Positions 18,076 through 18,251 of a DNA stretch of 64,000 nucleotides are shown one piece after another. Location of the stretch: NCBI RefSeq assembly GCF_049554935.1, contig NZ_CP186926.1, positions 960,001 to 1,024,000 on the forward strand. Direction: 5' to 3'. The position numbers and the translations under genes were made by a program. This DNA is from Methanocaldococcus indicus. GTDB lineage: Archaea > AGJL01 > Methanococci > Methanococcales > Methanocaldococcaceae. Below the pieces are notes generated by a model. It searched no databases and was not told the DNA's origin. It saw nothing but the letters and a program-made list of their open reading frames with translations. Position 1 is the stretch's first letter. Each line of letters begins with the position of its first letter.

Positions 18076-18125
18076 ATTTACCACTATATCCATAAATCTA
18101 AAATAATTAATATAACTGTTTAAAG

Positions 18126-18132
18126 AAAAAAA
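18126..18132 (-). terminator. Oligo-T terminator after the SECIS hairpin
   Basis: TTTTTTT on minus strand right after the stem. Confidence 0.6.
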
Positions 18133-18133
18133 C

Positions 18134-18169
18134 GTGAGAGGGTCCCCATAGTTGGGGTTCCCCTCTCAC
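18134..18169 (-). promoter_or_regulatory. Archaeal SECIS element
   Basis: GTGAGAGGG-GAA-CCCC-aactat-GGGG-A-CCCTCTCAC: 9-bp stem, GAA/A internal loop, C-G apical stem. Confidence 0.85.
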
Positions 18170-18251
18170 AGCGCAACGTTGTTAGGGACTCAGGATACCC
18201 CAAAGATGGTTAGCGTTGCGCCCACCCCAATTCACTATAAATTATAACAAC

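Follow-up and report, generated by a model that had tools for sequence, protein, structure and literature searches.

A SECIS element with antisense guides to fwdB and hdrA stands apart from its target genes in Methanocaldococcus indicus and may act in trans

The window analysed here is a stretch of 64,000 nucleotides (nt) of the Methanocaldococcus indicus contig NZ_CP186926.1 (positions 960,001 to 1,024,000), from a genome (G000) that comprises a chromosome of 1.414 Mb and a 22-kb contig (1.436 Mb in total, 28% G+C). On the minus strand of the window, ahead of glnK, an intergenic element joins a hairpin of the selenocysteine insertion sequence (SECIS) type to stretches that are antisense to the mRNAs of two selenoprotein genes, fwdB and hdrA. 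A preliminary description of this DNA had read the minus strand from 18235 to 18125 in the same layout, which we could confirm, and had proposed that the element delivers a SECIS to fwdB in trans.

Read 5' to 3' on the minus strand, the element opens with a predicted TATA box, TTTATATT (18252-18259), which has one mismatch to TWTATATA and is preceded by an A-rich stretch resembling a transcription factor B recognition element. The hdrA guide (18198-18231), complementary to hdrA mRNA, consists of two blocks, one of 10 nt (18222-18231) and one of 23 nt (18198-18220). Overlapping with it lie guide 1, TGGGGTGGGCG (18219-18229), complementary to fwdB mRNA 59097-59087, and guide 2, GGGGTATCCTGAGTCC (18186-18201), complementary to fwdB mRNA 59181-59166. 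A linker (18171-18185), the least conserved part of the alignment of 15 sequences, leads to the SECIS hairpin (18133-18170), built of a basal stem, a GAA/A internal loop and a CCCC/GGGG apical stem, and directly 3' of the hairpin stands a run of seven T (18126-18132), an oligo-T terminator signal. The predicted guide-SECIS RNA of about 103 nt (18126-18228, minus strand; its ends placed by the TATA spacing, with a start site at +/-2 nt, and by the T run) has a minimum free energy (MFE) fold of -44.2 kcal/mol (z = -2.75). In the MFE structure CGTTGCGC of the linker is able to pair back to GCGCAACG within the hdrA guide.

The TATA box lies 23 nt upstream of the first G of the guide domain in G000, and T-rich runs follow the hairpin in 15/15 orthologues; archaeal terminators consist of oligo-T. 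A TATA box at a spacer of 20-26 nt is found in 13 of the 15 elements (G013 and G005 are without one), and in copies attached to fwdB it sits between the fwdB stop codon and the element. At random intergenic positions of G000, such a box occurs at a spacer of 21-25 nt in 872 of 20,000 cases (4.4%). In a related species, the TWTATATA consensus has been reported at 23 +/- 2 nt from the start site in 94% of promoters (PMC2699501). The element looks like a self-contained transcription unit with a predicted promoter and terminator of its own, and its mobility would therefore be explained.

The orthologues were collected by BLAST searches of the element against G000 itself and 40 relatives. Across the 15 sequences, the 5' domain is almost invariant. 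No conserved fold of this domain was found by RNAalifold, which returned invariant or weakly supported pairs only, and its conservation is therefore one of sequence. A nearly invariant 5' sequence without a fold, followed by a variable linker, is the pattern that antisense guides constrained by coding targets should display. Searches against Rfam gave no match at gathering thresholds in the 64-kb window and none at E <= 10 over 17900-18500, so that the element RNA falls outside every curated family.

The hairpin reads GTGAGAGGG-GAA-CCCC(A)...(T)GGGG-A-CCCTCTCAC. Euryarchaeal SECIS elements of the GAA_A type are defined by two stems and an asymmetric internal loop with 5'-GAA opposite a single A (PMC13188914). 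The type further calls for three or more successive G-C/C-G pairs in the apical stem, for G-C clamps beside the loop and for an apical loop that is short. The hairpin of the element has two stems and GAA facing a single A, together with the expected apical CCCC/GGGG pairs, a basal GGG/CCC clamp and a loop of 4-6 nt. A covariance model (R1) was built from 20 SECIS rows, leaving out five of 26 rows that had been misaligned by MAFFT and the well-aligned L051:1391-1423. The element hairpin reached 34.0 bits on R1 (E = 9.2e-7), a score that is partly circular because the element is included in the model; the vhuU SECIS, which is not included, reached 29.7 bits. Both a strict pattern scan and R1 (E <= 2.3e-5; next hit at E = 4.3) found exactly six SECIS hairpins in G000, the element among them, and its identification as a GAA/A archaeal SECIS in the preliminary description is thereby borne out. 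Five of the six lie in the 3' flanks of vhuU (assigned by position only), vhuD, a HesB-like gene, fruA and selD. The element makes up the sixth and, unlike the other five, lies outside any selenoprotein untranslated region (UTR). The genes with in-frame UGA codons in this genome are seven, namely fwdB, hdrA, vhuD (with two UGAs), vhuU, fruA, selD and the HesB-like gene. Among the 15 orthologues of the element, compensatory changes were seen at six SECIS stem pairs, and the motif is canonical in all copies.

The gene fwdB encodes subunit B of formylmethanofuran dehydrogenase (58263-59579, minus strand), and its reading frame stays open only when the TGA at 59210-59208 codes for selenocysteine (Sec124). 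The protein scores 631 bits on the NCBIfam equivalog model TIGR03129 (cut-off 327.8), and it is the only FwdB homologue of G000 at E <= 1e-40, without a Cys paralogue. A SECIS acting in cis at fwdB had been named in the preliminary description as evidence that would speak against its proposal. No SECIS-like hairpin, non-canonical forms included, was found on the sense strand within 1.5 kb of the gene, in a genome with six SECIS hairpins in all. The 3' flank of fwdB in G000 consists of a 56-nt A+T-rich spacer followed by mobB.

Guide 2 is an exact 16-nt reverse complement of fwdB mRNA 59181-59166 (target 59166-59181, minus strand), and from the position of the UGA it follows that the target comprises nt 27-42 after this codon, exactly as had been described. 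At up to two mismatches, the 16-mer has two sites in the window, its own and the one in fwdB, and no match arose in any of 100 dinucleotide shuffles, which served as control for the guide matches. Guide 1 matches fwdB exactly over 11 nt (target 59087-59097, minus strand; nt 111-121 after the UGA). The shuffles gave on average 0.01 matches each, and the guide is 13 nt long in most relatives. Since both guides are collinear with their targets in the antisense sense, the two helices can form at once. Over 24 genomes, the target of guide 2 coincides with the most conserved window for third codon positions (Sec+8, 0.82 against a gene mean of 0.557), and the target of guide 1 falls within the top third-position window of the genus (Sec+35, 0.87).

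A BLAST search of the element against its own genome revealed a second target, hdrA, whose Sec UGA (G000:C1:96157-96155) lies outside the window, about 880 kb from the element. The element is antisense to hdrA mRNA G000:C1:96113-96147, with 23 nt of exact pairing at nt 8-30 and 10 nt at nt 33-42 after the UGA. A seeded genome-wide duplex scan with the 65-nt guide domain as query yielded 1296 sites (mean -25.7, sd 6.0; the antisense strand of the element itself excluded), among which hdrA ranked first (-74.3) and fwdB second (-56.4). The two mRNAs are the top non-self sites. The stronger target of the element is hdrA, and no other part of the RNA is as well conserved as the hdrA guide. The preliminary description had missed this target, as well as guide 1 and the published tethering in cis at the 5'UTR of fdhA (PMC11881835). 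The guide sets for hdrA and fwdB overlap on the RNA, so that one molecule serves one mRNA at a time and the two mRNAs compete for it. In predicted heterodimers at 80 C the SECIS hairpin is kept, with binding free energy differences of -23.0 kcal/mol for fwdB, both guides being paired, and -25.0 kcal/mol for hdrA.

The 3' flank of hdrA in G000 holds only a short hairpin without a GAA/A loop. This short G+C hairpin lies in the gap between hdrA and vhuD (locus L078, G000:C1:94683-94716, minus strand) between the brackets AGAUGAG and CUGAUGA, which resemble a kink-turn or a pair of C/D boxes. In relatives, the same brackets enclose a full GAA/A SECIS with a 22-nt hdrA guide 5' of it. The G000 hairpin may represent an hdrA SECIS in decay, or else an independent site for protein binding.

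Of the 17 genomes of the genus, G000 among them, 15 yielded the element. The two without a hit are G007 (86% complete; best E = 0.46) and G004 (86% complete), where only the hdrA site matched and where one fwdB fragment (amino acids 228-436), which fits a Sec or a Cys paralogue alike, has no element behind it. As such, it was also absent from the sister-family genomes searched (best E = 0.009). In 10 genomes the element starts about 50-70 nt past the fwdB stop codon, and in G005 it lies about 200 nt past it, beyond a G+C-rich insert. This insert (L014, G005:C207:1-2412, at about 665-870) is unusually G+C-rich, at a place where the others have a spacer of about 50 nt, A+T-rich and with the TATA box; either an inserted element or a further structured RNA is conceivable.

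In the remaining four genomes the element is unlinked to fwdB, at a distance of 40 kb in G000, 3.8 kb in G013 and about 450 kb in G002, and on another contig in G003. The four contexts differ: one copy lies ahead of glnK, one ahead of a thi4-like gene, one behind a ksgA-like gene and one amid two opposite-strand genes. No SECIS was found within 1.5 kb of fwdB in G000 and G003, and in G002 and G013 the only one in this range is that of vhuU, upstream. Since G000 and G003, which are independent assemblies, share the fwdB-mobB junction, the separation is real and older than their split. A branch of the FwdB tree with support of 94/99 sets the four detached genomes apart from the others, in the order (G013,(G002,(G000,G003))), and their terminal branch lengths are 0.07-0.19. 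The intergenic DNA around the element is not conserved. Rearrangement of a former fwdB UTR had been offered earlier as the alternative to action in trans, and the module does lie behind fwdB in 10 relatives and is detached in a clade of four. An old fwdB 3'UTR module may well be functional in trans now, so the two readings do not conflict.

Guides and targets vary together. The comparison for guide 2 covers the 14 genomes of the genus that hold both the element and a Sec-type fwdB target, and complementarity was found in all 14 (with one internal mismatch in G010). The comparison for the hdrA guide covers 13, G008 being left out because no hdrA site was recovered from it. Guide 2 reads GAGTCC against GGACTC in fwdB of G000, GAATCC against GGATTC in G003, ACGTCC against GGACGT in G013 and ACATCT against AGATGT in G002; the majority has ACATCCTGC against GCAGGATGT. 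In G016 and G012, a T in the guide faces the Pro codon CCA in the mRNA, and in G015 a G in the guide faces a U, giving a G.U pair. In an ungapped register over 24 genomes, of which 14 belong to the genus and 10 to the sister family, target columns 29-43 of guide 2 are each paired in 21-24 genomes, and at least two Watson-Crick pair types occur at the seven columns 26, 29, 32, 33, 34, 44 and 45. At guide 1, a change of G to T in G013 is mirrored by CCC to CCA in the mRNA. In the hdrA pairing, G013 shows three compensatory changes and G010 a single one, which alters an amino acid. When cognate pairs were swapped between genomes, none of 10,000 permutations reached the observed sum, for fwdB as for hdrA. 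Orthologues and compensatory changes between guide and fwdB, to which the preliminary description had pointed as a way of checking its proposal, thus exist, also between detached lineages. Two further peculiarities of G010 (L082/L041/L067) may be recorded here: the hairpin in its own hdrA 3'UTR has lost the GAA motif and the guide, and the genome carries a second fwdB homologue without an in-frame stop.

Guides to the coding region were also found at SECIS elements that remain on the mRNA. Among 15 fwdB loci of the sister family, nine have a guide to the same target ahead of the 3'UTR SECIS (25, 26, 21, 21, 18, 19, 19, 14 and 12(+10) nt), with compensatory changes, and shorter matches occur in three more. 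Within 600 nt downstream of fwdB, the SECIS pattern was not found in 3 of the 15 Sec-type loci (L058 in G022, L059 in G021, L060 in G027). These three belong to one genus of the sister family, and their SECIS may be of an AAA/A type with a weaker stem or be located elsewhere. At 16 of 24 selD loci the 3'UTR opens with a guide of 17-21 nt, directed at nt 9-30 after the UGA of this gene, namely in all 14 loci of the genus examined and in two of another genus, with lineage-specific matched variants; of the other loci, seven in the sister family have no guide and one further locus has no SECIS. The selD guide of G000 itself, AAGCTCGGTGCTGGGCA (17 nt, about C1:1205224-1205242, minus strand; L079, G000:C1:1203744-1207757), follows directly after the stop codon, is complementary to selD mRNA 13-29 nt from the U of the Sec UGA, and has the SECIS about 85 nt downstream. 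At hdrA, at least 6 of 15 genomes have an own 3'UTR GAA/A SECIS with a preceding 22-nt guide to nt 38-60 after the UGA. In every fwdB, selD and hdrA case the guide stands 5' of the SECIS, which therefore places the hairpin at the UGA-proximal end of the duplex. The guides accompany UGA-to-SECIS distances of about 1 kb or more. This suggests that tethering is a general adaptation of thermophilic Methanococcales.

In the literature reviewed, such tethering is described for one gene only. The SECIS in the 5'UTR of fdhA1 has flanks of 7 and 10 nt complementary to the open reading frame (ORF), which would place it 43 nt after the UGA, and these flanks are conserved in Methanococcales and longer in thermophiles (PMC11881835). 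The element resembles it in having a GAA/A hairpin beside stretches complementary to the ORF 3' of the Sec UGA, and longer pairing in thermophiles is a trend that we also saw at fwdB and selD. In contrast to the fdhA1 SECIS, which is on the same mRNA, the element forms a predicted transcription unit of its own at a distance of 40 kb; its guides, of 11+16 and 10+23 nt, are confined to the 5' side of the SECIS, whereas fdhA1 has flanks on both sides; and it addresses two mRNAs. The GAA/A hairpin type and tethering by complementary flanks at fdhA were thus already known, and what is new here is that the element stands free, that it targets both hdrA and fwdB, and that tethering extends to fwdB (order-wide), selD and hdrA. 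PMC11881835 mentions neither fwd nor hdrA.

Taken together, we consider it reasonably probable, from the sequence comparisons, that the element is a trans-acting, base-pair-tethered SECIS RNA for fwdB and probably also for hdrA, derived from a fwdB 3'UTR module. It would be the detached form of a more general device of thermophilic Methanococcales, in which a SECIS is tethered by pairing between UTR and ORF. Its action in trans, which we infer, would proceed as follows. The RNA would be transcribed from its own promoter and pair with the mRNA immediately in front of a ribosome arriving at the UGA. The position of the SECIS 3' of the guides would bring the hairpin to the UGA-proximal side of the duplex, where it would recruit the machinery of Sec-tRNA delivery, the archaeal SelB and a SECIS-binding factor, and the UGA would be read as Sec; the translating ribosome would then unwind the duplex and release the RNA. 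The comparative evidence lends support to the trans-acting reading of the preliminary description, and each refuting condition that sequence analysis can address turned out to favour lasting function in trans. That throughout the genus, attached genomes included, the operative SECIS for FwdB and HdrA, two central enzymes of methanogenesis, might be a separate small RNA with its own promoter, a programmable recoding guide that docks directly 3' of their UGA codons, is a more tentative extension, which we regard as possible.

Several observations weigh against action in trans. The promoter and the terminator of the element are predictions, and the duplex energies at 80 C are extrapolated nearest-neighbour values. 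Because the genomes are related, the permutation result (0 of 10,000) and the covariation counts overstate independence, and the FwdB tree rests on a single gene with midpoint rooting. In G010, an A.C mismatch interrupts the pairing of guide 2 with the fwdB of this genome, whose cognate combination is not its best. The hdrA mRNA could use, in cis, the SECIS of vhuD, about 0.5 kb past its stop codon. Moreover, the element retains its hdrA guide although hdrA has its own guide and SECIS in at least 6 of 15 genomes, which fits a second, possibly regulatory role. Finally, in the one published test of SECIS tethering, in which fdhA-type flanks were placed on a bla reporter, in a mesophile and in cis, activity was not significantly changed; in the same test the mRNA was about 3-fold lower, and a gain of about 2-fold was seen only per mRNA (PMC11881835). 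In view of this weak effect the pairing may serve a purpose other than SECIS delivery.

On such grounds the RNA might instead be an antisense regulatory small RNA (sRNA) that controls translation or stability of the hdrA and fwdB mRNAs, for instance by coupling them to selenium or to the Sec machinery, the SECIS being a sensor, a decoy or a protective 3' end. The persistence of the 33-nt hdrA guide where hdrA has a guide and SECIS of its own would agree with this, as would the competition of the two mRNAs for the RNA, which follows from the overlap of their target sets, and the roughly 3-fold drop in mRNA without a rise in activity that the reporter flanks caused (PMC11881835). We nevertheless regard it as unlikely, since it leaves unexplained how Sec is inserted into the sole fwdB of G000, G002, G003 and G013, which lack a cis SECIS. 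A regulator of this kind is also hard to reconcile with a SECIS that is canonical in 15/15 copies with compensatory stem changes, with guides that orient the SECIS toward the UGA, and with their position just 3' of the UGA, far from the start codon, where repression would be expected.

Very unlikely, in our view, is a stranded, non-functional relic, that is, a pseudo-SECIS left over from the former fwdB 3'UTR while fwdB is decoded by another signal. The orthology of the element with the fwdB 3'UTR module of 10 relatives would allow it, and a pseudo-SECIS is on record in Methanococcus voltae, going by a title in the reference list of PMC2933860. A relic, however, would not be expected to keep its TATA box (except in G013), guides, SECIS and T run in well-diverged detached lineages (branches of 0.07-0.19), amid intergenic DNA that is not conserved. 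Nor does decay fit with guide variants each of which suits its own mRNA, including those of G000 and G003 with their common fwdB-mobB junction, or with the lack of any other SECIS for fwdB in G000.

Action in cis, whether as 3'UTR of the upstream membrane-protein gene, as glnK leader or as part of a very long fwdB transcript, or else an assembly artefact that merely displaces the element, appears highly improbable. The element and fwdB are on the same strand, with the element downstream, and glnK starts about 35 nt past the T run. Against this, about 40 kb with many genes intervene between fwdB and the element, and the T7 run separates the element from glnK. None of the neighbours, P-II/glnK (17737-18093), a 69-amino-acid ORF (18404-18613) and a 195-amino-acid ORF (18629-19216), has an in-frame UGA, as already stated in the preliminary description. 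An artefact is countered by the quality of the G000 assembly (two contigs, rated 99.25% complete) and by the independent occurrence of mobB behind fwdB in G003. We rejected a leader or attenuator of glnK, and likewise a membrane-protein 3'UTR, as the neighbours differ in each detached genome.

Chance resemblance, to which a G+C-rich CCACCCC motif in both targets, common in His-Pro codons, might contribute, and gene conversion between inverted copies can hardly be upheld, given that the 16-mer arose in 0 of 100 shuffles, that the targets rank first and second genome-wide and that compensatory changes occur at seven columns, and given that antisense blocks of 16-35 nt at different loci and in different genomes would be poor substrates for conversion.

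The hairpin of the element does not differ from what is known. It is indistinguishable from the other five SECIS hairpins of G000 and orthologous to the fwdB SECIS of relatives; the departure from canonical 3'UTR SECIS elements of the GAA_A type lies in its place, in no selenoprotein UTR. Archaeal SECIS elements have been described at 80-1300 nt from the UGA, on the same mRNA (PMC2933860). In the literature reviewed, the SECIS is always on the mRNA that is recoded. As the preliminary description had supposed, a natural SECIS acting in trans was not found in the literature searched, which did not cover supplements and two older screens for non-coding RNAs in hyperthermophiles; the promoter studies searched mention neither the fwdB locus tags nor selenocysteine, and transcriptome studies of a relative that would bear on the element did not come up. 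With bacterial SECIS elements the element shares a signal right behind the UGA, its duplex starting 8 nt (hdrA) or 27 nt (fwdB) after it. Unlike the bacterial hairpin, which is intramolecular and bound by SelB, it would owe this proximity to an intermolecular duplex. Further comparisons are with trans-encoded antisense sRNAs and with archaeal box C/D sRNAs, guide RNAs in which an antisense guide is coupled to a kink-turn module that binds protein. The element is similar in combining base-pairing specificity with a kink-turn-like module on a small RNA, the SECIS internal loop having been called kink-turn-like (PMC11881835). It differs in having no C/D boxes, in its mRNA targets and in its proposed output, a redefined codon rather than methylation or silencing.

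With the element, a natural SECIS working from a separate molecule may have come to light for the first time. If so, a covalent link between SECIS and mRNA would be dispensable and base-paired proximity would suffice, which means that archaeal Sec insertion needs the SECIS near the ribosome only and not within the mRNA, and that UGA-to-Sec recoding could in principle be redirected by a change of guide. A guide-addressed SECIS could permit site-directed Sec insertion with the UTR of the target left untouched. It would also offer a handle on what binds the archaeal SECIS, for which the binding factor had not yet been identified (PMC2933860), and on the communication between a distant element and the ribosome. 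A natural experiment is provided by the four detached genomes, as the sole FwdB of G000 depends on a UGA without a SECIS of its own.

A few minor features of the locus remain to be mentioned. The 69-amino-acid ORF (18404-18613, plus strand) and the 195-amino-acid predicted membrane protein (18629-19216, minus strand) have no Pfam match. No Rfam family reached its gathering score anywhere in the 64-kb window, which hence holds no recognised rRNA, tRNA or other curated RNA. Immediately upstream of guide 1, the 9-nt stretch GTGAATTGG (18230-18238, minus strand) is complementary to fwdB mRNA 59095-59103, directly 5' of the guide-1 target, and cannot pair simultaneously with guide 1. Being found in G000 alone, and on the 5' side of the predicted RNA start, this match is probably due to chance.

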